A stretch of 64,000 bases of DNA from Candidatus Poribacteria bacterium (GTDB lineage: Bacteria > Poribacteria > WGA-4E > PCPOR2b), in assembly GCA_965116925.1 (NCBI GenBank), contig OZ220744.1, forward strand, positions 1,856,001-1,920,000, read 5' to 3'. Position numbers and translations under genes: made by a program. Under the pieces are notes generated by a model. The model made no database searches. It saw only the letters and a list, made by a program, of their open reading frames with translations, and was not told the DNA's origin. Within the stretch, counting starts at the first letter, position 1; the number at the start of each line of letters is the position of its first letter. Shown here piece after piece: positions 18,937 through 43,597 of this stretch.

Positions 18937-18978
18937 AATGTCTGCTCCTTCCTATTCGCCCCCGGTAGGTGCGGTTTC

Positions 18979-19057
18979 ATGAAGTTTAAGTATTTAAATC
19001 TCATAAAACCGCGCCGGCGTCGCAAGCAAATTACCGAACTGTTTTTTTAATTTTCAT
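18979..19057. mobile_element. ATGAA...TTCAT mini-element (internally deleted copy) inserted in a hairpin loop
   Basis: Same termini as 42792-42908 and 43272-43388. Flanks GGTGCGGTT-TC | CC-AACCGCACC. Confidence 0.8.
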
Positions 19058-19105
19058 CCAACCGCACCGGTTTTGAGTGTCTCATTACACTATAAACGCC
19101 GCATC

Positions 19106-20485
19106 TTACAACCCTTCTTGGTCGCTCAATCGCTGTAACAGCTTACAATAGGCTATCTGCCCCTGTTCAAAGCTGCTGATCCGGAAAAATTCGTCCGGGG
19201 CATGGGCGTTTTCATCTTCTAAGCCGAAGGCAAAAGTCACTGTATAGACATCTAGCTTATCTAGGAAAAGACGACATACCGGAAGGGTGCCGCCCAGTTG
19301 CGTGAAATACGGTGTTTTTCCGTATACCTCCTCAAGCACTTCGTAGGCAGCCTGATTCCCCGGATGATCTGTGGGGATTCGGTACGCCGGGGAGGGCGCA
19401 GCCTTGGGAGTAGTCGCTATCTCCACTCCCGGAGGCGTATATTTTTCGATATGGGTCGCAAGTTGTTCCAAGATCTTGTTCGGGTTTTGATCGGGCACAA
19501 GGCGGCAGGTGATTTTGGCGTGGGCTTCACTCGGAATGACAGTTTTGCTGCCCTCCCCTTGGAAACCACCCCAGATCCCATTCAACTCAAGCGTTGGGCG
19601 AACCCATGCCCGTTCAAGTGCCGTATAACCGGGCTCACCAAACAGGCGATCCACACCGAGTTGTTCCTTATACTCCGTCTCGTCGTGACCGATAGCAGCA
19701 ATCTGGTCTCGATCCTCGGCGGAGAGCGGGATAACATCGTCGTAGAACCCTTCAACCAAGATATCGCCCGCTGGGCTACGCATAGAATCCAAGAGACGTA
19801 CGAGGGCGTGGATCGGGTTTTGGACGGTGCCACCGTAGATGCCGGAGTGCAGGTCTACATTGGGGCCCTTCACGTCAATCTGTAGCGCGCACAACCCCTT
19901 GAACCCAACAAGCAGTGAAGGCTGATCTTCACGCCACTGCAATCCATCGGCACTAACCACTAGATCGCAAGCCAATAATTCTTTCTGGGCATCTATCAGA
20001 TCCGGCAGATGACCGCTACCGATCTCCTCCTCACCTTCAAAGAAGAATTTCAGGTTGACCGGCAAGCTACCCTCAGTCTTTAGCAGTGCTTCCGTGGCGA
20101 GGATGGGGATGAGCATGTTTCCTTTGTCATCGGAGGAACCACGGGCGTACACCTTTCCATCCTGCACGACGGGTTCAAACGGCGGGCTAGACCACAGATC
20201 GACCGGATCAACGGGCTGCGTATCAAAGTGACCATAGATCAAAACAGTCGGTTTATCGGGCGCGTGTAACCATTCACCGTAGACCACCGGAGGTCCACCG
20301 GTCGGCAGGATGCGTATCCCTTCAATGCCAGCAGCGTCCATACGGTTTGCAACCCATTCACCTGCCCGTTGAATATCACCGGCATGTTCAGATAGTGCGG
20401 AGATGCTCGGAATACGGATAAAGTCTAACATTTCGTCCAAGAACCGAGACCTGTTGGTTTCCAGATAATTTTCCCAATTCGCCAT
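19106..20485 (-). CDS. M20 family dipeptidase
   Basis: YGHFDTQP, ARGSSDDKG, EGEEEIGS, HAPDE metal-binding motifs. Confidence 0.92.
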   Translation of the reverse strand: MANWENYLETNRSRFLDEMLDFIRIPSISALSEHAGDIQRAGEWVANRMDAAGIEGIRILPTGGPPVVYGEWLHAPDKPTVLIYGHFDTQPVDPVDLWSSPPFEPVVQDGKVYARGSSDDKGNMLIPILATEALLKTEGSLPVNLKFFFEGEEEIGSGHLPDLIDAQKELLACDLVVSADGLQWREDQPSLLVGFKGLCALQIDVKGPNVDLHSGIYGGTVQNPIHALVRLLDSMRSPAGDILVEGFYDDVIPLSAEDRDQIAAIGHDETEYKEQLGVDRLFGEPGYTALERAWVRPTLELNGIWGGFQGEGSKTVIPSEAHAKITCRLVPDQNPNKILEQLATHIEKYTPPGVEIATTPKAAPSPAYRIPTDHPGNQAAYEVLEEVYGKTPYFTQLGGTLPVCRLFLDKLDVYTVTFAFGLEDENAHAPDEFFRISSFEQGQIAYCKLLQRLSDQEGL

Positions 20486-20598
20486 AGATTTCCCTTTTCT
20501 CCCTTTTGTCTTTCGCTCATATTAAGAAATCGTGCAATAGAACCCCTAGAGGTGGGGTTGCTGTATCAATGAACTAGTGAACCAATAAACTAATGAAC

Positions 20599-21414
20599 TC
20601 ATGCACCTTCAGCCACAAGCGTCATTTCCTCTTTGCCATCAAGGCCAGCAGCAACTGGAAAGGACTTCCGTTCCGGCTGCCCGTTGCGTGGCACATAACG
20701 AACTTGCGGCGAGAAGTATGCGTAAAGCGCGGTGTTCCTCGAATTCGGCGATCTATTCGGACCTGAACCGTGCGCCATGAGGCTGTGGAAAAACAGCGCA
20801 CTCCCCGCAGCCAAAGGAACATCAATCTGCTCTGAGAAATCGCGATCCTCGTGATCTGTCAAGGATTCATTCTGCTTACGAGCGATATGTCCCCAAGACT
20901 GAAGTCCCCATTTGTGGCTCTGCGGGATCACCTTAAAACATCCGTTTTCAGGTGTGGCATCATTGAGCGCGATGCTAACCGTTACCAGCGTCGGTGGCTC
21001 CATGGGCCAATACGCAGAATCTTGGTGGATGCCGTGCGCGGAACCGTGGAATGCCGGCTTAAACATTAACGTACTTCTGAACAGCAGCAGATCCTGACCG
21101 ATAAGGTTTTGCACAACTTGGATTAACTTCGGATGGACTGAGAGGCGACGAAATACCTCCGAATACTGACGGGTGTTTTCAGCCTTTCTGAGCACCGGAA
21201 GTTTATCGTCCTCTGCCAACGCCTGTGACGCAGTTTTCGCGTAAGGTTCGCGTTGAAAGTGCCCATTTTCGCCTTCTGCTTCGAGTTCGGCGGCGAGTTT
21301 GTGCAGACGCAGAATTTCCGCCTGACATTCCGCCAATTCTTCGGATGATAGTAGGTTCTCTACAACGAGGTAGCCCTCTTCTTCAAAGAAAGTTTTCTGT
21401 TCTTGTAGGGTCAT
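20599..21414 (-). CDS. PhyH family dioxygenase
   Basis: IHQDSAYW, ENGCFKVIPQSH, HGSGPNRS. Start at ATG 21414 after AAGGAG. Confidence 0.88.
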   Translation of the reverse strand: MTLQEQKTFFEEEGYLVVENLLSSEELAECQAEILRLHKLAAELEAEGENGHFQREPYAKTASQALAEDDKLPVLRKAENTRQYSEVFRRLSVHPKLIQVVQNLIGQDLLLFRSTLMFKPAFHGSAHGIHQDSAYWPMEPPTLVTVSIALNDATPENGCFKVIPQSHKWGLQSWGHIARKQNESLTDHEDRDFSEQIDVPLAAGSALFFHSLMAHGSGPNRSPNSRNTALYAYFSPQVRYVPRNGQPERKSFPVAAGLDGKEEMTLVAEGA

Positions 21415-21442
21415 ATCAATCTCCTTGACCATTTGAGTTTCA

Positions 21443-22378
21443 TTATCGGCGGTGTGATGCACCACCTACAATCTCGGCAAGCCGTTTCACAAGATATGCG
21501 TTAAAATTGTAGGGAGCCCCATACCCGGGTGCCTCTTGGAATTTTCGGCAAATGAACAGATGACAACCATCGCAATCAGCTTCGATAATGAGCGGGCGTC
21601 CGGAAGAATCACGTAGGAAATCAACGACACCAATCTCAAACCCGATCAGATCCGCCAAACGCAGGGCAAGCGATACCATCTCCTCATCAAGGGTTTCTAA
21701 AAATTCGTAACGTGCTCCCGTTGCAACGTTGATAATCGACTTTTCAGCACTATCAACACCCTCCTTCACCCGCATCGTACCCATAACCACCCGATCCCCG
21801 ACGACGTACATACGATAAACGCGGTCATTGGTTTGTGCTGTCGTGCCGACGAACTGTTGCACATAATAAGGCGGTGCAAGCACGAGCGTCTGATCGAGGA
21901 GGCGGTTGCGTTCCCCAAAAGCGACCTGATAGGCCTGATCTCCCCTCCGCGTCGTTATCGCTCCTCCCTCACGCCGTAAAATCCGATGCCCCACACCACC
22001 GCATAGGTGTGTCGATTTCAATAGGGCAATTCCGTACCGGTCCAACATCTCCACCACCGCATCGGGTGTCTGAGAGATAACTGTTTCAGGTGTCGGCAGG
22101 TTGTTTTCGACCATTAACCGAGAGGTCGCGATTTTATCAATAGCAATCTTCTGCGCTCGTATCGAATTAATAACCAACCGTTCTGACTCAAGTTGTCTCA
22201 ACGCATTCTGTTCGTCGCAGGGTAGCACATAGACCAGATCTACGTCCGTCTGATCGAGCGTCGCCGTTGTCAGCCGGCAACTCTGTCCACCGACAAGACT
22301 GATTTCATGCTCAAGTCCCCGAACCAGATCCTCCAATAGAAACCAGTAAGCGGGTTCGTAGAGCAATCCGATTTTCAT
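21443..22378 (-). CDS. RimK-like ATP-grasp ligase
   Basis: IDKIATSRLM...LPTPET, YYVQQFV, RMYVVGD, INVATGA, GVVDFL...IIEAD. Overlaps the RraA stop (ATGA-type coupling). Confidence 0.75.
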   Translation of the reverse strand: MKIGLLYEPAYWFLLEDLVRGLEHEISLVGGQSCRLTTATLDQTDVDLVYVLPCDEQNALRQLESERLVINSIRAQKIAIDKIATSRLMVENNLPTPETVISQTPDAVVEMLDRYGIALLKSTHLCGGVGHRILRREGGAITTRRGDQAYQVAFGERNRLLDQTLVLAPPYYVQQFVGTTAQTNDRVYRMYVVGDRVVMGTMRVKEGVDSAEKSIINVATGARYEFLETLDEEMVSLALRLADLIGFEIGVVDFLRDSSGRPLIIEADCDGCHLFICRKFQEAPGYGAPYNFNAYLVKRLAEIVGGASHRR

Positions 22379-23112
22379 AACGAATCTAGCGCACGTTTTC
22401 GGAGCTCGTCAAACTTCTCAGCGCACGCAGCCCGCGCTGCCCGCCACCCCTCTAAGTCACGTTTGCCAGTTTTCACGAAGTCAAGCACATAGCCTTCAGC
22501 TTCCATATATTCCGCGCACAAACGGGCAACACAACCAGCAATATGATTCGGAATTGTCGTTACGCCGTTGCAATCCCCATGTATCAAATCTCCGGGATAG
22601 ACCGTAGTCCCGCCAACATGCACCGGGATGTTCACATCGGCGATTTGGTGGTAGCCGTGGGAGGGGTTGGTACCGCTCGTGAAGGTGGGGAAATTGATCT
22701 CCCGTACCTGATCTAAATCTCGCCCGGCACCACTCGTGATTAGTCCTACGCAACCGAATGTCTGATAGGTCATGCACATCACTTCACCGAATGTCGCCGC
22801 AGCAGACGGAACATCGAGATCCTGGAAGACAACAACACGGGGTTCAGGAATTGAATCCATCTGTGCAAGCTGTTCCTCCATACCGGCGTAGGTCTCCCCT
22901 TCTCGCGGCGGATTGTCGGTAGAAAGCGTCGCTGTTGTTGCGTAACCGACCAGCGGTGGCATTTCTGGGAAACAGGCTTGGATGCGGTCATCCATATAGC
23001 CGGTGTTTCGCGGACGGACATCAAACAGTTCGATAACGTTACAAATTGTGGGCGTATCTGCGACCTTAAGAAGTTCTAACTCTTCGGATGAAATTGTTTG
23101 GACTGGATTCAT
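22375..23112 (-). CDS. RraA/HMG-aldolase family protein
   Basis: DTPTICNVIE, VGYATT, ATFGEVM, GAGRDL, VYPGDLIHGDCNGV. Confidence 0.85.
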   Translation of the reverse strand: MNPVQTISSEELELLKVADTPTICNVIELFDVRPRNTGYMDDRIQACFPEMPPLVGYATTATLSTDNPPREGETYAGMEEQLAQMDSIPEPRVVVFQDLDVPSAAATFGEVMCMTYQTFGCVGLITSGAGRDLDQVREINFPTFTSGTNPSHGYHQIADVNIPVHVGGTTVYPGDLIHGDCNGVTTIPNHIAGCVARLCAEYMEAEGYVLDFVKTGKRDLEGWRAARAACAEKFDELRKRALDSL

Positions 23113-23925
23113 AATTTTCCCCTTAGGGCTATTCTTAAAATGCGAAGTACAAATTCCATCGAAATTTGCAAAAACTGATTATAACACGATTTGATTGCGA
23201 AGGCATATATTTTTTTATTATTTGTAGGATTTACGCATTTCCTCTTAAAGTCTCCCTGATAAGGGGGATTTAGGGGGTTAAATGCAATCAGATAACGACT
23301 TTTCAGTCCGTAGGTTGGGTTGAACGGAACCGATGAAAATGCCACACATGACAACTGGGGTTAGAGGGACGATGCGGGTTGAAAGTTCACAAGTCGAGTG
23401 AAACCCAACATTTTATCTGCAGCGGATAAAGGTGTTGGGTTTCACTCTTTCTATCTACAAAGCAGTGTTGTTGAAAAACAAAGCATCTACCGTCGTTGAT
23501 AGGGATTCGGTTTGACCCGTTCAACCCAACCTACGATACTGTATGAATCCCATAGGCCGGGCCCCAATGAACCAAACTGTTTTTCACGTTTCACGCATCA
23601 CGTTTCACGCCCTTATTTTTCTACGAGCCTATATTCCTTCCCTCAAAGGGGTGAAACATTTGTTTCTTTGAGAAACATCTGTGTCACCCGCCCCGTACCT
23701 TGAGTTTGAAAGGGTTTGCGAGGTATTTGTCTCAAAATTGGTCTTCCAGCCGTTTCACCCCTTGTTGTCCCTTTACCCGGTTCCATCTCATACAATTAAT
23801 AACATCTACATGGGGTTAACGCAACGCTGCAAAGTGCGTGAAAGATAGAGCCAGAGCCGTTTTATGTGCTCATCTTCGATGCAGTATGAAGACAAAACAA
23901 CCTTATATATTCCTCCATGTACATC

Positions 23926-23942
23926 TTGGCAGATGTTTTGCA
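23926..23942 (+). promoter_or_regulatory. Sigma54 (-24/-12) promoter upstream of ferritin
   Basis: TTGGCAGATGTTTTGCA fits GG-N10-GC. Candidate UAS palindrome TGTTTCT-TTG-AGAAACA at 23661-23677. Confidence 0.65.
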
Positions 23943-23981
23943 TATAGAGAAGCATAAATTAAACGACAGAAAGGAGAAACC

Positions 23982-24479
23982 ATGTTAAGCCCAACCATTC
24001 AGGAAGCATTGAACAAACAGATTAATCATGAATTTTACTCCTCCTACTTCTATCTCGCGGTGTCAGCCTACTTTGAATCGCTTAATTTGGGTGGCTTCAC
24101 GCATTGGATGCGGTTGCAAAGTCAAGAAGAGAGAGAACACGGGATGAGGTTGTTAGATCACCTCCACGACAGGAACGGACAGGCGACATTTGAAGCGATT
24201 GCTCAACCACCTATAGAATTTCAGTCGCCAGCAGAAGCCTTTCAGCAGGCTTTGCAGCATGAGGACCATGTAACGCAGACTATCAATCGGTTCTACGAAC
24301 TGGCGGTGCAAGAGAAAGACTACGCAACACAGGTGGAGTTACAGTGGTTTATTTCTGAGCAGGTCGAAGAGGAAAAGCGAGCCCGTCAAATACTGGATCA
24401 ACTCAAAATGATTGGCGATCAGGGGACAGCTTTGTACCTGTTGGACAAGGAATTAGGGGAACGCGAGAGCGACGGCTAA
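23982..24479 (+). CDS. ftnA: Non-heme ferritin
   Basis: INHEFYSSYFYL, EEREHG, QHEDHVT, WFISEQVEEE ferroxidase residues. Confidence 0.92.
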   Translation: MLSPTIQEALNKQINHEFYSSYFYLAVSAYFESLNLGGFTHWMRLQSQEEREHGMRLLDHLHDRNGQATFEAIAQPPIEFQSPAEAFQQALQHEDHVTQTINRFYELAVQEKDYATQVELQWFISEQVEEEKRARQILDQLKMIGDQGTALYLLDKELGERESDG

Positions 24480-24534
24480 ACGTGACTTCGGTTTTTTTTA
24501 AGCGTAGGAACTATTAGACAACACAGGGAGAATT

Positions 24535-25116
24535 ATGGATACTTTAACGCAAGCTCTCAGTCAGGAAGCACTTCTTGGCGCGAGAATTGGTGAGGTTTAT
24601 AGAGCGGAGTCCAATGAGATCGAGGCGCAATTTGAAAGGTCCGAGCAACACAATGAGTGTACGCCTGTGGAACCCAACCTCGGTCCCGCCGTCCAACCGA
24701 GTTCTTTGCCTGTTACAGTCTATATGGAGAACATGGCAAAAGAACATATCCTTGTCGTTGATGACGAACAGAACATGCGTAACACCCTCGCATTCATTCT
24801 GGAAACAGCGAATTATCATGTCACAACCGCAGCAGAGGGGCGATCTGCTTTGGAGGAGATATTGGCGGCGCGAAAGGGCGATCAGCCAGTAGACCTGCTC
24901 ATCACGGATATGCGGCTACCCGGTTTAACTGGACTTCAATTGATTGATGAGTTGAATTACCTGAAAATAAAAATCCCTGTGCTAGTCATCACTGCCTATG
25001 GGGACCGGTCACTACTTCTTGAACTGGAACGCACCGGTTATGCGGACTACCTTGACAAGCCCTTTGATTACAAAGAACTTGTCAGGCGCGTTGATTTGCT
25101 CATGGAAAAAAGATGA
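24535..25116 (+). CDS. Single receiver-domain response regulator with N-terminal extension
   Basis: ILVVDDE, DLLITDMRLP, ITAYG, DKPF. No output domain; the start may be 24733. Confidence 0.85.
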   Translation: MDTLTQALSQEALLGARIGEVYRAESNEIEAQFERSEQHNECTPVEPNLGPAVQPSSLPVTVYMENMAKEHILVVDDEQNMRNTLAFILETANYHVTTAAEGRSALEEILAARKGDQPVDLLITDMRLPGLTGLQLIDELNYLKIKIPVLVITAYGDRSLLLELERTGYADYLDKPFDYKELVRRVDLLMEKR

Positions 25117-25157
25117 GCTGGGTGAAATACATCAATAAAAACAAGGAGGAAATTGAT

Positions 25158-25373
25158 ATGCTTTGGGGTGAAGCGTCTTTAAGGCTCAAACTTAACGGTT
25201 TTGAGGATGGATTAAACCACACGATAGATCGATTAACCTATGAGATCCTTCAGGAGTATCGCGAAGGGGTTGATGTGGCACATCAGTTGATGGAACCCCC
25301 AATGTGGGACACCTTTGAGGATCTACCGATTCCATTCTTCAGTCCGAGGCATGAACCGGACGAAATTGCCTAG
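25158..25373 (+). CDS. Small hypothetical protein
   Basis: Strong RBS AAGGAGG before ATG 25158; co-oriented with the ferritin/regulator genes. Confidence 0.55.
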   Translation: MLWGEASLRLKLNGFEDGLNHTIDRLTYEILQEYREGVDVAHQLMEPPMWDTFEDLPIPFFSPRHEPDEIA

Positions 25374-25879
25374 GGCGTGTTGACATTTCACACGGCGTAG
25401 GTTGGGTTGAATGGTAAAAGCAAGTTCCTATCAAATACAATAGAAGCTACGCTTTCCAGTAACACTCCTTTATAGGATAGATGAAGTGAAACCCAACACC
25501 AATTTGGTCATTTCTGATAGGTGTCGGATATGAAAATCCGATCTACAGATTGTCTAGCAACTTAGGCTAAATAACCTAAGTTGCTAGTTATTGGAAATCC
25601 ATCAGAACCTGTAGGTCGAGATTCATATCTTGACACCCAAATGTCAACAGAACTAAACAGTAAAGCGGAACATTAATATTAAAAGAAATTGACGCAAAGC
25701 TTAATACAATCTGGACGCTGTATCTACAGCGGACCAACATTACATAGGACTTACGCAGCGAACCGTAGGCGGGACATCTTGCCCCGCACCACCTATACTG
25801 AAATGCACAAGTCTGAAGGTGGGACATTTGGCTCCGTGCTAAAATGCGTAAATCCTGTTACATAAAGGAGGCAAATACC

Positions 25880-26683
25880 ATGGCAGTCATCACCGTTTCC
25901 AGAGAATACTACAGTCGCGGCACACAGATTGCCCGGCAGGTTGCCCAAGACCTGGGATATAACTATTTTGATAAAAATATCCTCACCGAGGTGGCACGCG
26001 CCGCCAACACAACCGCCAAACAGATTAGCCGCTATGACGAGAAGTGCGAGAATGGGCTGAAAGGTTTCCTCAAGAAACTCTTTGTACCGGAGTTCTCACG
26101 ATACCTCGATTTCCCGTACTACTACTACCCCTCCGAATTTCTGATGGATAGCTACCCTGTTGAGAGGGATACAGCCTTTGAAGAAGATCTGATTCCGACC
26201 GAAGCGGAGACATTGGGATTCTTCCAGCATGTCATCGAAAAGCTCTGGAAGTTGGACAATGTTGTCATTGTCGGACGCGGCAGCCAAATGATTCTCGCCA
26301 ATCTGCCAAATACACTCCACGTCCGCTTTACTGCGCCGGTGGCAGACCGCATTGAACGGATCATAGCGGATCAAGGAATTGTTTATCCCTTAGCTCAGAA
26401 AGAGGTTGAAGACGCTGACAAGCAACAGGCACAATATATCAAATATTCCTATGATGCCGATTGGGCGGATCCCAAGCACTACGATCTCGTACTAAATACT
26501 GGATCTATGAGCGACGAACAAGCGGCAAAAGTTATCATCACCGCTATCCGTAATCAGGAGACTGAAGCGCAGAACGGGAAAGGTGTGGACACATGGAAGG
26601 AAAAAAGACCAAGCGCACTCCCCTCTTTTATCTCCCACACCCCTCCGAGCATACTCCGCGACCAGCCCAGACATTGGGGCTAA
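25880..26683 (+). CDS. Cytidylate kinase-like family protein
   Basis: VITVSREYYSRG, NVVIVGRGSQ, DPKHYDLVLNT. Start at 25880 after AAGGAGG; the ORF-track ATG lies inside a MITE. Confidence 0.85.
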   Translation: MAVITVSREYYSRGTQIARQVAQDLGYNYFDKNILTEVARAANTTAKQISRYDEKCENGLKGFLKKLFVPEFSRYLDFPYYYYPSEFLMDSYPVERDTAFEEDLIPTEAETLGFFQHVIEKLWKLDNVVIVGRGSQMILANLPNTLHVRFTAPVADRIERIIADQGIVYPLAQKEVEDADKQQAQYIKYSYDADWADPKHYDLVLNTGSMSDEQAAKVIITAIRNQETEAQNGKGVDTWKEKRPSALPSFISHTPPSILRDQPRHWG

Positions 26684-26787
26684 CGATGCTGCCTGATGAA
26701 TATGGAAAGGCAAAGAGAAGCCGAGTTTTTTCTTCAAAACTCGGCTTCTTTCTTCTGCTCTAGGTTGCTTCTGCACAATTTCTTAAC

Positions 26788-27381
26788 ATGAGCCAAGACT
26801 CAGTATTGAAAGAAGGTGAATTGGCTGTGACATTAGCGGAAACCTTTGATTTATGCCAAGAGATTGAGCTGAGACACGCAAAGCTATACGCGACACTATC
26901 TGTCCGGTTGGGCGATGTTGATGAACGAATTGCTCGGTTTTGGCTGGAGATGAGCGCAGAGGAGTGGCAACACCATCTCCTTGTCGGTTTTGGACGCTCG
27001 CTCTGTGCCCAGACTTTCGGACTAGATGGTCCCGCCCCTCAGTTTGCCGACGTATCTATCGAACGGATTAACGACACATTGAGTGAGTATGAAGAGCGTG
27101 TGCGTGCAAAGCAGGTCACTCTCAATGACGCATTTGAGATTGCCATTGCACTTGAAACCGGTGAGTCAGATACAATCTACGCCGAGCTGGTTGCGACCAT
27201 CAAAGACGCAATTTATCAGAGCAATCGACCCTATCTATTGGACCGCATCTCCCAGATGGAAAAGGATATGCACGATCACGTGAATCATCTGATTGATGCC
27301 GCCAAACGGTTTTCTATTAATCCAGATATAGTCCGAAAAGCACACCGCTTGACAGATCCCCACACCCCTCCATTGAATTGA
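26788..27381 (+). CDS. Ferritin-like/rubrerythrin-fold protein
   Basis: EIE...Y...EEWQH and ALE...Y...DMHDH di-iron-like pattern. The ATG at 26788 lies in a repeat terminus, so the true start may be 26821 or 26827. Confidence 0.6.
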   Translation: MSQDSVLKEGELAVTLAETFDLCQEIELRHAKLYATLSVRLGDVDERIARFWLEMSAEEWQHHLLVGFGRSLCAQTFGLDGPAPQFADVSIERINDTLSEYEERVRAKQVTLNDAFEIAIALETGESDTIYAELVATIKDAIYQSNRPYLLDRISQMEKDMHDHVNHLIDAAKRFSINPDIVRKAHRLTDPHTPPLN

Positions 27382-35208: not shown

Positions 35209-36171
35209 ATGCAACGGAGATACAATCTGACACATTTTCTTTTGGCTAGCGTTGTCGTCTTGGGCCTAACGCCGCTGATGCTATGCGTTGAGGCACAGGC
35301 GCAGATTGCCTTCGTATCTGAGAGGGATGGAAACCCTGAAATCTACGTGATGGACAGCAATGGGAAGAATCAGCATAGACTTACCAATAATCCGCATGAT
35401 GACTGGGATCCCTCCTGGTCCCCCGACGGCAAACAGATTACCTTCATGTCTGATAGGGATGGGAACAGTGAAATCTACGTGATGGACAACGATGGAGGCA
35501 ATCCTCAAAACCTCACTAACAATGTTGGTGATGACAGGTCTCCCTCCTGGTCCCCCGACGGCAAACAGATTACCTTCATGTCTGATAGGGATGGGAACAG
35601 TGAAATCTACGTGATAGACAACGATGGGAGGAACCCACAAAGACTTACTGAAAATCCCAATGAGGACGATTTTCCCTCATGGGCCCCCGATGGTAAACAG
35701 ATTGTCTTCTCGTCTGCGAGGGCGGGGCACTTTGATTATGAAATCTACGTGATGGACGCCGATGGGAGGAATCCACAAAGACTTACTGAAAATCTAAAGA
35801 CTGACTGGGATCCCTCATGGTCACCGGACGGTAAACAGATTGCCTTCACGTCTGATAGGAAGGCTGCCTTTGAAAACTTTGAAATCTACGTGATGGACAC
35901 CGATGGGGCGAATCCACAGAGACTCACTGAAAATCGCGTTGATGACTGGGATCCCTCATGGTCACCGGACGGTGAACGGATTGCCTTCATGTCGGAGAGG
36001 GATGGGAACCCTGAAATCTACGTGATGGACAACGATGGGGGCAATCAGCAGAACCTTACCAATAATCCGCATGATGACTGGTCTCCCTCATGGTTTAACT
36101 CTCCTTTTTCGGTTTCTCCCGCAGGGAAAAAAATCATGATATGGGGTTGGCTCAAACGGGTTGACCGATAA
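35209..36171 (+). CDS. PD40/TolB-like beta-propeller secreted protein
   Basis: Signal peptide (AQA), repeated [23 protein letters not shown]-terminal [19 protein letters not shown]. Confidence 0.88.
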
Positions 36172-36233
36172 CTACCATTATTGAAAGAACGCAAGGATAA
36201 GAAATTGCTTTGAGAACAGAGGAGGAATAACAA

Positions 36234-37205
36234 ATGCAACGGAGATACAATCTCGCCCATTTGATATTAGCTAGTGTTATAGTCTTGGGCCTAACACCGT
36301 TAATGGTAACCGTTGATGCACAAGCACGGATTGCCTTTGAATCTGATAGGGATGGGCACATTAAAAACAACTCTTGGGCTTATGAAATCTACGTGATGGA
36401 CAACGATGGGGGCAATCAGCGAAATCTCACTAATAATCCTGCTGACGACAGGTCCCCTTCATGGTCTCCGGACGGCAAACGGATTGCCTTCATGTCGGAG
36501 AGGGATGGGAACCCTGAAATCTACGTGATGGACAACGATGGCGGGAATCAGCGAAACCTCACCAAGCATCTAGATAACGACAAGTCTCCCTCATGGTCCC
36601 CTGACGGCAAACGGATTGCCTTCGGGCGGCACGGGGCAATCTACGTGATGGATACCGATGGGGGTAGTCAACAAAGGCTCACTAAGGATCGCATGAATGG
36701 CGAGGATCCCTCATGGTCTCCCGACAGCAAACACATTGTCTTCGTGTCTAATAGGGCGGGGAACAAAGACATCTTCGTGATAGACGCTGATGGAAGGAAT
36801 CAGCGAAACCTCACCAATGATGACCGTTTTGATGAGGATCCCTCATGGTCTCCTGACGGTAAGCGCATTGCTTTTTCTTCTTGGAGGAATGGGATAGGTG
36901 AAAACAAAGACATCTTCGTGATGGACGCCGATGGTGCCAATCCGCAAAACCTCACCAATCATCCCGATAACGACTGGCATCCCGTATGGTCACCGGACGG
37001 CAAACGGATTGCCTTCGTGTCGAATAGAACTAAGGATTTGAATCGGGACATCTTCGTGATGGACACCGATGGGGGTAATCCGCGAAACCTCACCAATCAT
37101 CCCAATGATGACGAAGATCCTGCATGGTATCACCCTGTGCTTTCAGTTGCTCCTGCGGGTAAGACCCTCACGATATGGGGGCAGCTCAAGCAGGTGAACC
37201 GATAA
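36234..37205 (+). CDS. PD40/TolB-like beta-propeller secreted protein
   Basis: As above; C-terminal VAPAGKTLTIWGQLKQVNR. Confidence 0.88.
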   Translation: MQRRYNLAHLILASVIVLGLTPLMVTVDAQARIAFESDRDGHIKNNSWAYEIYVMDNDGGNQRNLTNNPADDRSPSWSPDGKRIAFMSERDGNPEIYVMDNDGGNQRNLTKHLDNDKSPSWSPDGKRIAFGRHGAIYVMDTDGGSQQRLTKDRMNGEDPSWSPDSKHIVFVSNRAGNKDIFVIDADGRNQRNLTNDDRFDEDPSWSPDGKRIAFSSWRNGIGENKDIFVMDADGANPQNLTNHPDNDWHPVWSPDGKRIAFVSNRTKDLNRDIFVMDTDGGNPRNLTNHPNDDEDPAWYHPVLSVAPAGKTLTIWGQLKQVNR

Positions 37206-37271
37206 CTCCATTATTGACAGAACGGTGTTTAAGGATAAAAGCCCGATTTGAGAACAAAGGAGGAATGGCAG

Positions 37272-37718
37272 ATGCAACGAAGATATAGTCTCGCCCGTTT
37301 GACTTTAGCTAGCATTTTAGTCTTGGGTCTGACACCGTTGATGGCAGTCGTTGATGCACAGGCACAGATTGCCTTCATGTCTGATAGGGATGGGAACCCT
37401 GAAATCTTTGTGATGGACAGCAATGGGAAGAATCAGCATAGACTCATCAATAATCCCAATGGTGACTGGTCTCCCTCATGGTCATCTGCCGGCAAGCGCA
37501 TTGCTTTTATCTCTGATAGGGATAGGCACCCTGACGTTATACCCGGTTGGTTTACTTCTGAAATCTACCTGATGGACGCCGATGGGGGGAATCCTCAGAA
37601 CCTCACCAATAATCCTCATGATGAATGTTGTCCCTCATGGTTTAACTCTCCTTTTTCGGTTTCTCCTGTAGGCAAAAAATTCACGATATGAGGACAGCTC
37701 AAACAGCTCAATCGATAA
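37272..37718 (+). pseudogene. Degenerate PD40 paralog
   Basis: Only about two repeats remain. TGG to TGA at 37689 destroys the conserved Trp; the frame continues GQLKQLNR* to 37718. Confidence 0.75.
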
Positions 37719-38075
37719 CTGCCATTATTGGGAAAGCAGCATTGTCGAGATATGAATCTCGACCTACACGAGTAGGAAATAGATGATCATCCCTAGTGGT
37801 TCAGAACAAATGGAATGAAGGTCTCTGTTCCCTAGGAACGACTCGGTTCCAAGTCCAGCGGGGGTTTTCAATGTCAACATGTCTAGCAACTTAGGCTATT
37901 TTAACTCCCTATAGGACTTACGCAGTTGCGCTCTCAAAGTTCTGTAGTTTGGCGATTCATCGTCACACAAGATAACTCTCAACGCCCGATGAATCGGGCA
38001 ACTACAGTAGGCACCGGTTCTGTTTCGTAGGGAACGCGGATCTGCGTTCCCTATTGAAGTGCGTAACTCCCATCC

Positions 38076-39986
38076 CTATTGAGCCCGTCGTGGTATCCTA
38101 TAAATCCAAACATAGTCGATGCCGTTAAGGGTTATCACATGTTCTAGCTCACCGTTGAGCGTTCCCGTTTGCGGCACCCATCCCGCTTGGGATTCGCGGA
38201 TATGGACCACCTCATAATCTGGGACGATTTCTTCATCTGGGTTGGGCCAGTGCACCTGCCCGGCAAAGTAGGGAAGAAAGAGGTGGGCACTTGGCGGAAA
38301 GGTTTTAACACTTAATGCTTGTGCATTTGGTTTCTTATTTAGGTATTTTGCCGCGAGATCGTATCCCACGCCCCCGCCTTCACCGACTGTAATAATTTTT
38401 CTGATATCAGTGAGTTTGAAGCAGAGGTTGTAGTAGGTGCCGTAGTAGGGGTGAAGCCGGAGGATCGGCACGATTTGGATTAGGAAGAGACAGAGGACGG
38501 TCACGATAGAAAAGGTAAGTTTTTGGGCATTTGCTCCGGTTCCAAACCGGGAGTCGATATAGGAGTAGCCCCATTTAAGAAACTCAAAAAAGCCGATAGC
38601 GGCAAGTATCTCCAGCATTGGGAAAGCGGGGAGCAGATACCGACTAAACTTCTTGCTCGTTAGCGAGAGACAGAGGGTAAACAGTAGGACAACTACTACC
38701 AACGCAAGAGCTATCCGAAACTGTCGCGCATACCCTTCCTCATGGCGTTTCCTCCACAGAAAGAGACACCCGGCGAATGCTAAAGGAAGCGTCAACGGCG
38801 TGGTATTTATACAGAGTACCAACGGGTAGAAGAGCCAGCCGGGGTCATGTAACACCTGTCCTAAGAAAAAGTGTTGAAGGTTATGCGGCGTAGTAATCGC
38901 CCACGCAACACCATCGAACACCCACCAAACGGTCCGGACCATATAGCCGGATACCACACCTATCACCACGACCGATGAAAAATATAGGGTGAGGCGTTGA
39001 CGCACCCCTTTCTGTAACTCCCGATACGTGAGCAGCGTGATGCCTAACAGACACACCCCAAACACCAAAAAGACGGGGTTCCAAAAGATGGGCAACAACG
39101 CGAAAACGGTGAGTAACGTGCAACTCAGGAAACAGAGCCCCGCCCCAAGCCCCCGTAAAAAGAACTGCCGCCACGTCTCCTCCCGATTCCGAAACAGGGC
39201 GAAGCAGATAGGCACCCACAAGAGAAGAATAAGGGCATTGCTTTTGGAAAGGCAGGCTAGACCGAATGCAATTCCAGAACCGACAAGGTAACGACGTTTT
39301 TGAGGTGTTTGACAATAGAGCAGGAAGGACAGGACCGTTAACAGGATAAACATCGCCGCCAACGCATCGGTGTGGACGCGACGGGATTGGGCTAATAAGA
39401 GTGGGGAGAAGGATAGAAACACCGCACCGATGATTGCAACCCAACGTCCAAACAACCGATATAGCAGCACCGCTGCTACACCAATCCCGATTAACAAGGC
39501 GACGCCGATGAACCACCGGGCTAACGCTAAGCCTTGAATACTTATATGGGGTTCAGTAAATAGGGTGCGCAGGGCAGCAAGCCACATCGTTATGACACCG
39601 GGGTGGAAGGTGACGAGGGTTTCTGAAAAGGCACCCATATCGACCGCGGCCATAAACACTGTACTATGGTCCAACCACCCACGTTCATCAGAAGTCCAGT
39701 GGGCACCCAAAGAGAACAGCCGAGGTACACTCGCAGCCACAAATAAGCATACACCAAACAAGAGTGAAGAAGAAGTTTTCAGGGAGAACGGTTTCATTGG
39801 GAGGTGGATTGTGCACCGGCAGGAGTTGGATTGGGCGGTTCTCTCAAGAATCTGCTGTACCTGATTTGCCAATATCCGTTTCCTGCCTTCTTTATATTCG
39901 TGATTGGCATACATTTCCCGAAAGGCTATTAGCCCGAGAACGTCACCAATCGTTTGGGAGATGTAATTCGTTCGCCTTTTGTTCAT
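38076..39986 (-). CDS. GT-C fold glycosyltransferase (GT39/ArnT/PMT-like)
   Basis: WTSDE acidic motif, HPG, many TM segments, LACLSK, RYLLP. The start may be 39797. Confidence 0.8.
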   Translation of the reverse strand: MNKRRTNYISQTIGDVLGLIAFREMYANHEYKEGRKRILANQVQQILERTAQSNSCRCTIHLPMKPFSLKTSSSLLFGVCLFVAASVPRLFSLGAHWTSDERGWLDHSTVFMAAVDMGAFSETLVTFHPGVITMWLAALRTLFTEPHISIQGLALARWFIGVALLIGIGVAAVLLYRLFGRWVAIIGAVFLSFSPLLLAQSRRVHTDALAAMFILLTVLSFLLYCQTPQKRRYLVGSGIAFGLACLSKSNALILLLWVPICFALFRNREETWRQFFLRGLGAGLCFLSCTLLTVFALLPIFWNPVFLVFGVCLLGITLLTYRELQKGVRQRLTLYFSSVVVIGVVSGYMVRTVWWVFDGVAWAITTPHNLQHFFLGQVLHDPGWLFYPLVLCINTTPLTLPLAFAGCLFLWRKRHEEGYARQFRIALALVVVVLLFTLCLSLTSKKFSRYLLPAFPMLEILAAIGFFEFLKWGYSYIDSRFGTGANAQKLTFSIVTVLCLFLIQIVPILRLHPYYGTYYNLCFKLTDIRKIITVGEGGGVGYDLAAKYLNKKPNAQALSVKTFPPSAHLFLPYFAGQVHWPNPDEEIVPDYEVVHIRESQAGWVPQTGTLNGELEHVITLNGIDYVWIYRIPRRAQ

Positions 39987-40170
39987 TTGCTGCTCTGCTT
40001 CGGAGCAGTGAGAGGCAACGCAATTACTGCCTAACAGGGCGGAATGCTCATCTAGGATAATTTGTAGATAGGTTGGTGCCTATTCTGCTTAGGACCCAAC
40101 TATCGCAGCAAGTAGGTTGTTATGCTAAAAGCCCCTGAAGAGACCTTTAGCATAACGAAGCTGCCTAATT

Positions 40171-40398
40171 TTACTGACTCGTGCAGCACCAGCCAGCCCT
40201 TCGGGCATGGAGCATCGTTTGCGTTCGGTGCCCTTTCGTACATGTGAAGTGCGGGTGGCCATCGGCAGGCAGGTTACCGTTAATGTCCTGACCTGGGTCT
40301 GCCTCTGCATCATAGGTAAAACATGTAATCATTGACACAGCTAACAGACTGAGTGCGAAAATGAAAACCATTCCGAGGATCACTGCTTTCCGTAACAT
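40171..40398 (-). CDS. Small secreted Cys/His-rich peptide
   Basis: RBS GAAAGGAG; signal peptide ending AEA; mature DPGQ...HPHFTCTKGH...HARRAGWCCTSQ; hairpin downstream at 40119-40156. Confidence 0.65.
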   Translation of the reverse strand: MLRKAVILGMVFIFALSLLAVSMITCFTYDAEADPGQDINGNLPADGHPHFTCTKGHRTQTMLHARRAGWCCTSQ

Positions 40399-40940
40399 TG
40401 TGTTTAACTCCTTTCGGATTTGCAGAAGCAAGCCACTCCTGCTGTTAGGGATAGAATTTTCTAAATCTTCCAATTTCGGGACAGGCATGAACAAGTTTTA
40501 CAGTTCACAACTTCATCTGTCCCGTTGCGATTATAAAATACCAGCTAATAAATAGAAAATCCAGTCACCTTTTGGGCGTAGTGCCATATTATGTCAGTAC
40601 GCCTTGAAATTAATTGCAGATTGAATAGAAATAGCTTGTCAACCTTGAATTGATAGGTCTAAATCCAGATTTTTAATCAAGATTAAACGGGGGTATGACT
40701 TACGCAGTTGAGTAATCAGCACCTAAGGCCCCCCTCTATCGTTGGGGCAGATTTCCTAATCTGCCCACAGGTTGGGAAACCTGTGTCTACGAGGGCAGCT
40801 GTGAAAGGATTATATTGCTTTGAATCCCGCCTGTCCCGATTTATCGGAGATTTATCGGGGCAGGCGGAAATAGGGATAACGATTTGCACAACCAAAGTGC
40901 GTAAATCCTAACTTGGATAGCGGTTCAACGGTGAGGATTA

Positions 40941-42533
40941 CTAGCCGGATCGGTGACGTTCAACAGTGAGTTGGCTCATGTTTTGAACCAGATCGATTAT
41001 GTCGGTGAGGTGATCATCGAAGTGGATTTCCAGCGGCGAGAATGTGTATTGAAAGTGGGGTGCTAACAGGATTATGGCAAAATCCTCCTGTAGGATAGAC
41101 AGCACACGTCGCCCAATCCTCCGCCTTGTCGCTGTGTTCTCTGTTTGGTTGAGTTGAGAGAGCATCTCATCAACTTGGGGGTTGGCGTAGCCAAAAAAGT
41201 TGTCTATCCCGTCGGAACGGAAGAATTGCGACAGGCGACTGTGCCCAACCCCAAAAAAGATCTGGGTTAAAAAGGCATCCGTATCTTCCCCCATCTCTAT
41301 AGAATTTACCACAGAGGCACCTGTTGACTTTCCAATCAGCTGAACCAAATGGCGAAACACACCAGCCGCGCAGGCGATTTGAAGGTCAAAGGGCAGGCGA
41401 GGCGATTGTGAACGCTCCCCTTCTTCATTAACCTGTTCCATCCGAAGATAGAGGTCGATTGCCCGGTAGTCGATTGCTTCTTTAAGGAGCCTACAGTTCC
41501 TTTCCTCCGATAGAGGTCCGTGATGACGGTTGAGAAATAGGACGTAGTAGTTGTCCTGAAAAAAGGGCCACTGTTGACAGGGCACTGTTGTTGGAGATTC
41601 GTAGAAGGACCGCAGCGCATGGGGAGAGACAGAAAGCAGGTCTAATGTGCCGTTCTCTAACGCCTTAATCGCGTTAGGTGAGCGTGTAAAACGTCTTAGG
41701 GTCAACCAATCAATGGGGGGATTTCCTCCGCGATAGTAATCCGGGTTTTGCGTGAAGCGGAAGGTCGAGGCGTCGGGACGAAAGGATTTCAATTGATAGG
41801 GGCCAGAGGTTACGCGGTAGGGCTGGGATGCATGGGAAGGGTGAACGGAGATCCCGCTCAGATGAAGGGGAAAGAGTGCTTCTTCTTGAGAAAGTTGAAC
41901 CCGAAGTTGGGTCTTGCCATCCGGTTTTATCTCTGTTATAATCGGTGCGATGCGACTCTTGGAAAACGCTGCAATAATCTCTTCAAACGTAATCGGCTTT
42001 CCGTCACTCCAACGCAGGTCATCTCTCAAGGTCAATTGCCACTGTGAATTTCCTTTCACCGCCTTGCAAGCGGTTGCAAGGCGTCCTTCGATCTTGCCGT
42101 TTCGGTGGTACACGAGGAGCGGGTCATAGCATAGGTTCTGGAGCCAAAAGTTTAGTGCCGGGTGCAATTTGGCCGAAGGGTCCGTTTCTGTTGGAATCAA
42201 CTCTCCGATCTCAAGCCGATTAACAGGTGCCTCCTCGTCGGGGTGTACGGTACGAAGGATTCCGGTGTAGGAGACTCCCATCAGTTTTTGAAGCTGTTGG
42301 GCAATAGCCTTCTGATCTGGATCTCGTGAATTCAGGAGTGACAGCAGAAATTGGATCTGCTCTGGTTGCAGATAGGAATCAGCCAACTGGTGTTTGAGAA
42401 GATTCACATCTTTTCTGCAGCGGATGACCTGTCGCGGTGAAAGTCCAATCCCCTCGGCAATCTCTTTGTCGCTGGCTTGGGGGTGTTCCTTTTGATAGGC
42501 AATCAGTTTGAGGAGCGTATTGACTTTGGCCAT
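40941..42533 (-). CDS. HTH plus family-5 solute-binding domain fusion (SgrR-like architecture), no signal peptide
   Basis: HPQASDKEIAEGIGLSPRQV HTH; LTLRDDLRWSDGKPIT, TSGPYQL, NPDYY, GYANPQVDEML SBP_bac_5 motifs. Confidence 0.8.
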   Translation of the reverse strand: MAKVNTLLKLIAYQKEHPQASDKEIAEGIGLSPRQVIRCRKDVNLLKHQLADSYLQPEQIQFLLSLLNSRDPDQKAIAQQLQKLMGVSYTGILRTVHPDEEAPVNRLEIGELIPTETDPSAKLHPALNFWLQNLCYDPLLVYHRNGKIEGRLATACKAVKGNSQWQLTLRDDLRWSDGKPITFEEIIAAFSKSRIAPIITEIKPDGKTQLRVQLSQEEALFPLHLSGISVHPSHASQPYRVTSGPYQLKSFRPDASTFRFTQNPDYYRGGNPPIDWLTLRRFTRSPNAIKALENGTLDLLSVSPHALRSFYESPTTVPCQQWPFFQDNYYVLFLNRHHGPLSEERNCRLLKEAIDYRAIDLYLRMEQVNEEGERSQSPRLPFDLQIACAAGVFRHLVQLIGKSTGASVVNSIEMGEDTDAFLTQIFFGVGHSRLSQFFRSDGIDNFFGYANPQVDEMLSQLNQTENTATRRRIGRRVLSILQEDFAIILLAPHFQYTFSPLEIHFDDHLTDIIDLVQNMSQLTVERHRSG

Positions 42534-42630
42534 TTGTATCAGTTAAGAAGGGTTTTGGTAGAATAACCTAACGCAAGTTGCTAGTGTTGAGAATCCATCG
42601 GTTTGTCGTTAAGATTGAGGGATTCTATCT

Positions 42631-42947
42631 TTCGCTCCAGAGGAGCGATATGTCTATAGAGCGGCGATCAGACCAATCCCTGCGCTCCAGAGGAGCGCGA
42701 TGTGCATGGCAGGGTGAGTTACCACAACCCATTCGCTTCAGAGGAGCGATATGTCTATAGAACGGCGATCAGACCAATCCCTGCGCTCCAGATGAAGTTT
42801 AAGTATTTAAATCGGTAATCCCTATTTTCCTCGAAACATACGGTAGGCGCGGTTTCAAACCGCGCCGGTGTCGCTAGCAAATTACCGAATTATTTTTTTA
42901 ATTTTCATGAGGAGCGCGATGTGCATGGCAGAGCGAGTTACCACAAC
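42631..42947. repeat. 101-bp tandem duplication with four CGCTCC-AGA-GGAGCG hairpins; the last one carries an insertion
   Basis: Units start at 42631 and 42732. A related repeat AGCCCCAGCGGGGCGACATGT occurs twice on the minus strand at about 46828-46900. Confidence 0.8.
42792..42908. mobile_element. 117-bp ATGAA...TTCAT mini-element
   Basis: The empty site GCGCTCC-AGA-GGAGCGC is present in the neighbouring tandem unit; the filled site duplicates the central G. Confidence 0.88.
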
Positions 42948-42957
42948 TCATCAATGC

Positions 42958-43140
42958 CTACTCATCATCTTCCATTTCCCAATCAAAATCGCTCGCAGCA
43001 GCATAAGTCCCGTAACTACAGCAGCAGAGGGGAAGCCAATTAAAATCCTTGGCTTCTGTCGTGTCTTCCGTATCTTCCTCGGTCATGAAGATATCCGTTG
43101 GTAGGTTGGTTTCTGCGGCATGAATCGTTTTACACGCCAT
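42958..43140 (-). CDS. 60-aa acidic peptide with a CCC motif
   Basis: RBS AAGGAGG; MACKTIHAAETNLPTDIFMTEEDTEDTTEAKDFNWLPLCCCSYGTYAAASDFDWEMEDDE. Confidence 0.7.
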   Translation of the reverse strand: MACKTIHAAETNLPTDIFMTEEDTEDTTEAKDFNWLPLCCCSYGTYAAASDFDWEMEDDE

Positions 43141-43271
43141 CGTTTTCCTCCTTATAGCTAGTACTCTGTCAAATAAATCGTGATAAGCCACTCACCGCTT
43201 AACTTGGATAGACATATCCAAGCCGCTTTGTGGGGGAAGTATCTAAAGGAGCCTTTTGTACCACAATCTGT

Positions 43272-43388
43272 ATGAAGTTTAAGTATTTAAATCGGTAATC
43301 CCTATTTTCCTCGAAACATACGGTAGGCGCGGTTTTCAACCGCGCCGGTGTCGCTAGCAAATTACCGAACTGTTTTTTTAATTTTCAT
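43272..43388. mobile_element. 117-bp ATGAA...TTCAT mini-element
   Basis: Near-identical to 42792-42908. Flanks CACAATCT-GT | TT-AGATTGTG. Confidence 0.88.
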
Positions 43389-43597
43389 TTAGATTGTGAT
43401 CCCCGTCCGCAAACTAACAGTTTGCGTTACATTTGTCAGATTATCCAATGATTACAACGTTTGCTGAATCAGCAGCCTCTAAATGTCAACACGCCCTAGA
43501 AAACTGTATTATAAAGATAAAGTCCTTCAATTTTAACAGAAAACCGACGACTTTTCAATGCCTACTTACCAAAACGCCAGAAGCTACATCAATACTG

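Follow-up and report, generated by a model that had tools for sequence, protein, structure and literature searches.

How does one short mobile element come to lie at the exact centre of several unrelated hairpins, and is it the sequence or the shape of the target that is read? The question is raised by a window of 64,000 nucleotides (the whole stretch of DNA that was analysed) from a Poribacteria genome. The initial annotation had described three copies of a mini-element, each in the loop of a different hairpin with only the central loop base duplicated. The coordinates of all three are borne out (Table 1). Their palindromes differ, two nucleotides separate arm from element on both sides, and the centre base (C, G or T) is found on both sides; the empty form of the second target is present as well. 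Conserved 28-bp terminal inverted repeats hold for copies 2 and 3, with 21/28 and 19/28 positions matched, but not for copy 1, in which 14/28 positions match and TCGGTAAT is absent on the left because the inner part of the left end is lost. The divergent fourth end is real, and excision of the element nested beside it leaves two nucleotides followed by a REP arm; its partner end was not found. Rfam gave zero matches over 42500-43600.

Table 1. Location of the MITE copies, their targets and the related insertion sequence (IS).
Feature	Position	Strand	Remark
MITE type A, copy 1, internally deleted, 79 bp	18979..19057	+	left end truncated after 22 nt
Host REP left arm and loop bases 1-2, copy 1	18968..18978	.	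last base (C) is the duplicated base
Duplicated base, last loop base and host REP right arm, copy 1	19058..19068	.	
MITE type A, copy 2, full length, 117 bp	42792..42908	+	imperfect 28-bp terminal inverted repeats
Host palindrome left arm and two loop bases, copy 2	42783..42791	.	G duplicated
Duplicated base, last loop base and host palindrome right arm, copy 2	42909..42917	.	
Second target in unoccupied form, loop of 3 nt	42682..42698	.	starts 101 bp upstream of the filled arm at 42783
GTAG-type REP hairpin within copy 2	42842..42868	+	
MITE type A, copy 3, full length, 117 bp	43272..43388	+	
Host REP left arm and two loop bases, copy 3	43262..43271	.	T duplicated
Duplicated base, last loop base and host REP right arm, copy 3	43389..43398	.	
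GTAG-type REP hairpin within copy 3	43322..43348	+	
Orphan end, same MITE family	10306..10333	-	type B/D-like interior
Unrelated nested element outside the MITE family	10338..10546	.	8-bp target duplication, 10330-10337 and 10547-10554
IS630-type IS, 1,241 bp, two copies	G000:C1:1430426-1431666 and 4122211-4123451		

For copy 1, the host REP with an uninterrupted 3-nt TCC loop is found at the syntenic position in 2/19 congeners (L401, L402). Four sequencing runs over 40900-45700 gave only short contigs and no orthologous empty allele. Skipped forms with 3-nt loops derived from these reads at copy 3 were rejected as empty alleles, since they could be other REP copies.

A search for long copies with the same ends led to a 1,241-bp IS in two copies that carries an IS630-family transposase gene. 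Its 28-bp ends match each other at 24/28 positions, and its single ORF of 384 aa terminates within the right end. MITE ends are identical to the IS ends at 27/28, 27/28 and 23/28 positions, the right end of copy 2 being one that agrees at 27/28. Judged by these sequences, the IS is the likely parent of the family, and the repeats can be classed as bacterial MITEs, since they are short, non-coding and multi-copy and share their ends with an autonomous IS. The transposase, which had been taken for an uncharacterised one, is an IS630-family DDE enzyme: it scores 161.1 bits against the NCBIfam IS630 model NF033545 (cut-off 100), contains the Pfam domains DDE_3, HTH_29 and HTH_32 with two N-terminal HTH regions, and has a predicted structure (pLDDT 87.3) for which the top seven Foldseek matches are all Mos1 (best E 3e-8, at a TM-score of only about 0.4). 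Solved structures searched by sequence returned only a weak Sleeping Beauty match (E 0.057), and among the best 30 of 1,466 records of a plasmid search there are only distant IS630 elements of 26-28% identity and no named close relative. The catalytic residues D191 and D273 are invariant and E334 is nearly so. IS630 enzymes carry a DD34-37E-type triad, and the spacing varies across ITm groups. Here the triad is DD60E, with a spacing of 60 and not about 35 because of an insert of about 25 residues; most palindrome-targeting relatives have DD59-63E.

The termini search of the whole genome returned 111 paired MITE copies of 79-147 bp, 97/111 of them measuring 115-117 bp. When a palindrome is defined by at least 6/7 matching arm pairs at the geometry of the window copies, 100/111 pairs are palindrome-centred, that is, they do not mostly lie outside palindromes, compared with 0.17% of 20,000 random positions. 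A single base is duplicated in 86/111 pairs, and in 46/50 once the commonest REP is set aside. Centred insertion into unrelated palindromes with a 1-bp duplication, as annotated from the window copies, thus extends to the genome. All four bases occur among the 86 duplications (G 32, C 27, A 16, T 11); five apparent 2-bp duplications all lie in homopolymer runs and none is TA. An exact empty allele elsewhere in the genome was found for the 1-bp reading in 63/86 cases, for the 0-bp reading in 6 and for the 2-bp reading in 0. Halves of the 24 distinct target arms rarely pair when crossed, 22/552 (4.0%) being palindromic. Most targets are REPs, and palindromes with few or no further copies are also among them; numerous targets have arms of only 5-9 bp.

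It is highly improbable that this pattern results from loose insertion followed by survival only at hairpin tips, or from gene conversion spreading a few REP-plus-MITE units. The coding mask holds 0/111 insertion sites, the most frequent oriented target class has 11 members and chimeric flanks are frequent among the copies, all of which such a history would produce. However, the 81 clean sites fall into 44 distinct type-by-target classes, eight identical copies of the type-B MITE each lie in different targets, and a register exact to one base is not something that selection would fix. A TA-ended MITE family of the same genome, subject to the same selection, lacks any hairpin bias, with TA/TA at 176/189 junctions and 6/7 arm pairs in 0/189. 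A count of 1/60 targets within the TA-ended MITE was set aside, its search motifs being too narrow.

The proposal that structure and not sequence is recognised stands in part. Symmetry matters beyond any consensus: a symmetric weight matrix fitted to the targets holds only 3.65 bits, and of 39,891 non-coding positions that reach at least its 25th-percentile score, 3.4% are palindromic, versus 31/35 distinct real targets. The left and right target halves match each other without a common consensus. The bases next to the loop matter too, however. Used 3-nt-loop hairpins close with TT, CC or CT in 89/100 cases, while of 237 empty GG-closed ones 0/237 have a used counterpart, and the arm ends TTGGG, CGGGG and CGAGG show zero use despite 103, 88 and 38 empty sites. 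Evenly spaced hairpins account for 1,284/2,551 empty hairpins of the genome, and at most two unique even sites are used. Since even hairpins are abundant yet almost unused, and the 3-nt-loop families are used unevenly, the transposase found here does not read parity freely.

Relatives differ in the duplication. A single base is duplicated at the hairpin centre in 14/15 full-length copies of genome G047 and in 36/54 full-length copies of the ATGAAG-ended group. Homologues in Chloroflexota, Cyanobacteriota, Acidobacteriota and Bipolaricaulota insert at evenly spaced palindrome centres with no duplication, and the empty sites of blunt centred insertions outside Poribacteria have 2-nt spacers. The annotated 1-nt stagger therefore describes this genome (86/111) but is not fixed in the lineage, because relatives insert bluntly. 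Both outcomes coexist in genome G054, 0 bp and 1 bp in 4 and 4 of 23 pairs, matching the spacer. A strict rule of duplicating 0 bp in even and 1 bp in odd spacers is contradicted by genome G044, which has five off-centre 1-bp duplications in 4-nt or 2-nt spacers (L184, L203, L308, L310, L316). A rule of spacer minus 2 was also discarded, with no 4-nt spacer and 2-bp duplication in its support. Neither a clean duplication nor an empty allele is present in 25/111 pairs of this genome, 17/54 full-length copies and 15/23 pairs of G054, and we tentatively ascribe these junctions mostly to recombination between copies.

Readout of the duplex, in which subunits read degenerate B-form half-sites with pyrimidines before the cut and purines after it, is an unlikely account of these data. 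The stagger would then be specific to the transposase, 1 for the majority of Poribacteria and 0 for the majority of the others; REPs would supply two well-spaced half-sites. Marked base preferences by the loop, including T at -2 and A at +2 in 64/66 centred junctions of G343, agree with such half-sites, as do the almost complete restriction of this genome to odd spacers, the off-centre duplications of G044 and the flanks in G401, which resemble a relaxed form of the CCTA/TAGG sites of TA-using relatives. Yet about 40,000 matrix-acceptable, non-palindromic non-coding sites are left unused, target halves match each other and not a common consensus, and both duplication lengths follow the spacer within one genome.

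The TA-using relatives form a DD35E IS630 lineage (G044, G509, G516, G525) with TA duplication in a CTAG/CCTAGG context in 13/16 copies examined. They share with the palindrome-targeting elements ends that start with ATGAA, an inner GGTAAT-like motif, about 33% protein identity and the host group, but make the classical TA duplication and do not target hairpins. Such a lineage also bears on the idea that shape is read by a host protein, where a binder of REP hairpins, such as RAYT/TnpA-REP, gyrase or Pol I, would bring in the transpososome or set up a nick. REPs make up most targets, and Pol I, gyrase and IHF bind REPs according to the available part of one study (PMC1525189). This idea is nevertheless very unlikely: some target palindromes recur rarely or never, centred targeting tracks the transposase lineage over five phyla with unrelated REPs, and the TA lineage of the same host group ignores hairpins. 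The transposase trees are quick ones with neither bootstrap nor outgroup, and the order of events is not readable from them.

The reading that we consider probable is that of an IS630-derived lineage which has lost TA recognition, prefers hairpin-capable palindromes and makes a 0-1 nt stagger set largely by the target. Shared ends and target behaviour, both observed, suggest that the IS630-type transposase mobilises the MITEs in trans, and transposition may be of the cut-and-paste type as in ISY100. The most likely cause of the targeting would be that the transposase dimer, which has to kink and unpair target DNA in this superfamily, captures sites where a hairpin or small cruciform can form, with an added preference for pyrimidines adjoining the loop. 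We infer that extrusion of the hairpin or cruciform is the recognised feature; arms of 5-9 bp are short for spontaneous cruciform formation. Strand joining would usually occur one base 3' of the 5'-arm end on both strands, a pattern with exceptions, and a join point one base past the 5' arm entails a 1-bp duplication in a 3-nt spacer and none in a 2-nt spacer. Nested stacks arise because the GTAG-type REP in the interior of the MITEs also serves the family as a target and is hit at other loci of the genome. More tentatively, it is quite possible that a whole IS630/mariner branch spanning several phyla picks secondary structure, with loop geometry and not the enzyme setting the 0- or 1-bp duplication. 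On this view both active sites would contact the loops of a hairpin or cruciform, nearly regardless of its arm sequence. Ends shifted one base inward, which would restore a TA duplication, fit only TA-centred targets. This shift was rejected because the terminal A and T are constant whatever the target elsewhere, and because copies of the TA lineage, with the same ATG...CAT ends, have their TA outside these.

Insertion at TA with a duplication of 2 bp is regarded as a hallmark of IS630/Tc1/mariner elements and is explained structurally for Mos1. The elements described here resemble IS630, ISY100 and Mos1 in having one transposase gene, short inverted ends and HTH plus DDE_3 domains, and their MITEs, like RUP and Correia, have ends in common with an IS. 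Unlike these, they use palindrome centres and no TA, duplicate a single bp, whichever base it is, or nothing in place of 2 bp, and differ in D-E spacing. ITm insertion is described as being into TA (PMC8533490, and PMC2170065 in the part available), and into TATA for Sailor. For ISY100, the accessible sections describe cleavage at the 3' ends and, for the 5' ends, 2-3 nt inside them, and 3/39 products with TA at one side and just A at the opposite side (PMC2170065). In Mos1, the target is bent by about 147 degrees with flipped bases, according to excerpts of PMC5481204. REP-targeting ISs named in the available text of PMC1525189 are ISPsy8, IS1397 and ISKpn1 (IS3 family), ISRm22 (IS4) and ISPa11, ISPpu9, ISPpu10 and IS621 (IS110). 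As far as that text goes, they are alike in a fixed insertion point in REPs, at the symmetry axis for ISPsy8 and ISRm22, and in hybrid flanks through recombination between copies for ISRm22; they are unlike in belonging to other families with one REP consensus each, the axis-targeting ones duplicating 3 or 6 bp (PMC1525189). In general, REP-specific ISs have an IS3, IS4, IS110, IS256 or IS5 transposase and make 3-6-bp repeats or none by family, whereas here a single element with an IS630-type enzyme enters 24 arms in one genome with a 1- or 0-bp duplication. IS630 is absent from those parts of PMC1525189, and a keyword literature search found no description of palindrome-centre targeting by an IS630-type element.

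A natural lineage that has dropped TA, next to a relative that uses it, makes target choice of these enzymes directly testable and lets one ask whether a DDE transposase reads DNA shape. It may also serve as a test for the extrusion of short palindromes in vivo and as a means of inserting DNA almost without a scar at designed hairpins; if secondary structure is read, every designed palindrome would be a landing pad provided that its loop is suitable, and scar-free insertion would be possible. From the view of the host, these elements are selfish DNA for which intergenic REPs are low-cost landing sites. Such elements evade annotation that relies on target duplications. A metagenome scan gave five loci, with both flanks at one of them. 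The gene flanking copies 2 and 3 is itself multi-copy and present in 12/19 congeners.

The genome of Candidatus Poribacteria (GCA_965116925.1; G000) consists of a single contig of 6.47 Mb, in which the window occupies C1:1856001-1920000. Scanning with 13 end seeds from the genome itself yields 243 MITE ends, one of them added by hand, which resolve into 111 paired elements and 21 orphans; some pairs are nested copies and a few are chimeric, and all were kept in the counts that follow. Element length is 115–117 bp in 97 of the 111 pairs. In 100 pairs, arms located exactly 2 nt from each junction form at least six out of seven Watson–Crick pairs, a degree of pairing reached by 0.17% of 20,000 random positions and by 22 out of 552 cross-pairings of 24 distinct arms. 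In line with the initial annotation, most insertions in this genome lie at palindrome centres.

In 86 of the 111 pairs, the base before the left junction recurs immediately after the right junction (46/50 outside the commonest REP type, 40/61 within it). The duplicated base is G in 32, C in 27, A in 16 and T in 11 cases, and the five cases that look like 2-bp duplications are runs of a single base. Reconstructed loops of these 86 pairs contain 3 nt in 82, 1 nt in three and 5 nt in one case. An exact empty allele is found elsewhere in the genome for 63 of them when 1 bp is read as duplicated, for six when no duplication is assumed and for none with a 2-bp reading. The 25 pairs lacking a duplication mostly consist of two halves that each fit some known empty loop, which suggests recombination between copies; hybrid flanks of this origin are also reported for ISRm22 (PMC1525189). 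Some copies have perfectly inverted flanks with neither a direct duplication nor a matching empty site (see table), which could stem from inversion between copies or from template-switch correction of a long hairpin.

Locations of the elements and neighbouring features (C1, contig of G000; L, individual loci)
Feature	Location	Remark
MITE copy 1	window 18979-19057	
MITE copy 2	window 42792-42908	
MITE copy 3	window 43272-43388	
Orphan MITE end	window 10306-10333	
Nested element	window 10338-10546	209 bp
ORF adjoining orphan end	window 7024-10017	minus strand, 997 aa
DUF4198 gene	window 43598-44395	beside copy 3
IS, first copy	C1:1430426-1431666	1,241 bp, ends as MITEs, one 384-aa ORF
IS, second copy	C1:4122211-4123451	as first copy, 17 differences
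Three-element stacks	C1:4122104-4123578; L259, L268 (G343)	
Unique even sites	C1:1421130; C1:3707076	
Inverted flanks	L018; L019; L024; L025; C1:978792; C1:3411772; C1:4103641; C1:4187298	
TA-ended MITE	C1:415670 (example); around window 18960-19095 (remnants)	

All three window copies sit in a host palindrome with a single base duplicated, and the empty form of the second target is present 101 bp upstream, both as originally claimed. The imperfect 28-bp ends with a conserved inner motif are found in copies 2 and 3, but the first copy is internally deleted, has lost the left inner motif and matches between its two ends at only 14 of 28 positions. The proposed fourth end is real but no partner end was found for it, and the neighbouring nested element is unrelated: it has short inverted ends, is flanked by an 8-bp target duplication, is inserted across the orphan-end tip and belongs to a different MITE family. 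Comparison of the adjoining ORF with Pfam at E 0.001 gave no match; the DUF4198 gene has a second copy in the genome and up to three in congeners. The locus of the first copy is syntenic in all 19 congeners, and none of them has the element within the region compared; the same REP is present with its TCC loop uninterrupted in two, a variant with a 4-nt loop occurs in one, and 16 have no such REP.

The symmetric weight matrix built on 35 distinct targets holds 3.65 bits, and 39,891 of 1,029,606 non-coding positions reach its 25th-percentile score. Readout of half-sites in duplex DNA is a rather unlikely explanation of target choice, as 3.4% of these passing positions are palindromic compared with 31 of the 35 real targets. 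The initial proposal that structure rather than sequence is recognized agrees with this low information content, but the bases closing the loop matter as well: TT, CC or CT closes 89 of 100 used hairpins, and no GG-closed hairpin is used although 237 empty ones exist in the genome. Sequence still matters for target use beside symmetry. Help from a host REP-binding factor is improbable, in our estimate. The median hairpin energy (DNA) of the reconstructed targets is -7.1 kcal/mol, and most of their arms measure 7–9 bp. Evenly spaced hairpins account for 1,284 of the 2,551 available with perfect 7-bp arms, and only two unique even sites are apparently used in the genome, both without duplication.

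Another MITE family in G000 is TA-ended (189 paired copies, mostly 98–104 bp); it shows TA at both junctions in 176 of 189 pairs and six of seven arm matches in none of the 189; therefore, intergenic survival does not force hairpin sites. Selection as the origin of the pattern is at odds with this family, and gene conversion of one copied unit with the spread of 81 clean sites over 44 distinct type-by-target classes and with eight identical type-B copies that occupy different targets, so that we regard either process as highly improbable. Within the TA-ended MITE lies a REP belonging to the class that the hairpin MITEs hit most frequently. Because it inserts into the AT-rich ends of hairpin-targeting elements, it may account for many orphan ends.

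Long copies with the same ends and a transposase gene had been anticipated, and two such elements of 1,241 bp were found, with no further close copies in G000. Both sit in the REP inside a MITE, which thereby brings its own landing site, and one belongs to a triple stack; in the three-element stacks each element is centred in the REP of the previous one. Three MITE ends are identical to the IS ends at 27, 27 and 23 of 28 positions. The enzyme, first described as uncharacterised, scores 161 bits against the NCBIfam IS630 cut-off of 100, contains DDE_3 and HTH domains and has the catalytic triad D191-D273-E334 with 60 residues between the last two; its predicted structure (pLDDT 87) has Mos1 as best structural matches. 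From the shared ends and identical target behaviour we infer that this transposase moves the MITEs. Its stop and last codons lie within the right terminal repeat, likewise in most distant homologues. Residue 275, after the second catalytic Asp-Asn, is Trp in distant homologues and Arg in most Poribacteria members; two subgroups again have Trp, next to changed residues.

Homologues occur in 14 of 61 sampled relatives by protein search and in 41 of 176 genomes of the phylum by profile search, the latter count including fragments and the DD35E group. Among 54 full-length ATGAAG-ended copies (56 rows minus two nested mis-pairings), 36 show a single-base duplication at a hairpin centre, one a duplication without hairpin and 17 none. 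Genome G047 adds 14 of 15 further copies with such a central duplication, with arms down to 5 bp. G054, with the same ends, has four blunt insertions at even sites and four single-base duplications at odd sites, all with matching empties, and 15 of its 23 pairs are assigned to neither. In G064, one of four cases is single-base and two are blunt. G044 has 10 single-base cases, one blunt and 21 without assignment among 32; five of its single-base duplications lie off-centre in even spacers and break a strict parity rule of none at even and one at odd spacers. TA is presumably the ancestral target state of the superfamily. Of 16 copies of the DD35E lineage with similar ends, 13 have TA at both junctions, and these all come from genomes of the Poribacteria order; the remaining three, from G401, are flanked by short palindromic sequences other than TA. 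In quick, unrooted trees, the Poribacteria DD59-60E proteins form a group (SH-aLRT 100) apart from the TA group.

Homologues at 43–48% identity are present in Cyanobacteriota, Chloroflexota, Bipolaricaulota and Acidobacteriota. They share the end pattern and likewise occupy palindrome centres, with arms 1 or 0 nt from the junction. These insertions duplicate nothing, as the empty copies have 2-nt spacers (9/9 for the main target of G061, 4/4 in two Nostocaceae genomes). In G343, which belongs to the phylum of an Anaerolineae genome, 329 matches to the ends were counted. A subset of 70 loci comprises 92 junction pairs: 66 of these are centred, their arms lying 1 or 0 nt away, and the remaining 26 are chimeric or ambiguous. 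Empty alleles support the blunt form for 56 of the 92, the 1-bp form for one and neither for 35, and for one target with 76 empties, each of the 50 listed has a 2-nt spacer. The MITE of G343 likewise measures 116 bp and likewise contains its own target. The postulated 1-nt stagger therefore describes the duplicating pairs of G000 but not these relatives.

The ends, the partner element, the target symmetry and the duplication lengths are direct observations. Cleavage of ISY100 is described at its 3' ends, which are then joined at TA to positions separated by 2 bp; one base of the duplication was missing from 3 of 39 products (PMC2170065). Mos1 imposes a bend of about 147 degrees on its target (PMC5481204) and traps flipped adenines (PMC5481204, PMC8934666). 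In the present IS630-derived lineage, adenine trapping would have been lost. Sites that kink and unpair at the centre, owing to their ability to form a hairpin or small cruciform, would be favoured. The usual point of attack on each strand would be one base beyond the 5' arm, with an expected duplication of 1 bp at 3-nt spacers and none at 2-nt spacers. We consider this preference and mode of attack probable, with considerable room for doubt.

IS3, IS4, IS110, IS256 and IS5 elements are described as inserting specifically into REPs, also at the symmetry axis, with a separate REP consensus for each; passages of that account do not name IS630 (PMC1525189). Passages of other sources describe ITm elements as TA-duplicating and Sailor as TATA-duplicating (PMC8533490), palindromic consensus sequences as common among transposons with individual sites seldom palindromes (PMC2577343), and a general range of IS duplications of 1–14 bp (PMC11708052), by which a length of 1 bp is not in itself unprecedented. 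Insertion of the present kind is not described in passages of PMC2817692, PMC9366434, PMC3184786 and PMC3733652. Keyword searches of mostly open-access literature retrieved no IS630 element at palindrome centres with 0–1-bp duplication; an earlier description is possible. The hairpin-targeting observation is real and the system is of IS630/mariner type, alike in protein and fold, but not an ordinary family member because TA target and 2-bp duplication are both lacking.

MITE lengths in G000, G044, G054, G343 and G064 cluster at 114–117 bp across two phyla; less populated classes lie around 85, 127–129, 147–150 and 156–157 bp, and all are near whole helical turns (10.5 bp); lengths of 79, 98, 164 and 192–197 bp fall off this pattern. 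The classes may reflect a phasing constraint on end pairing.
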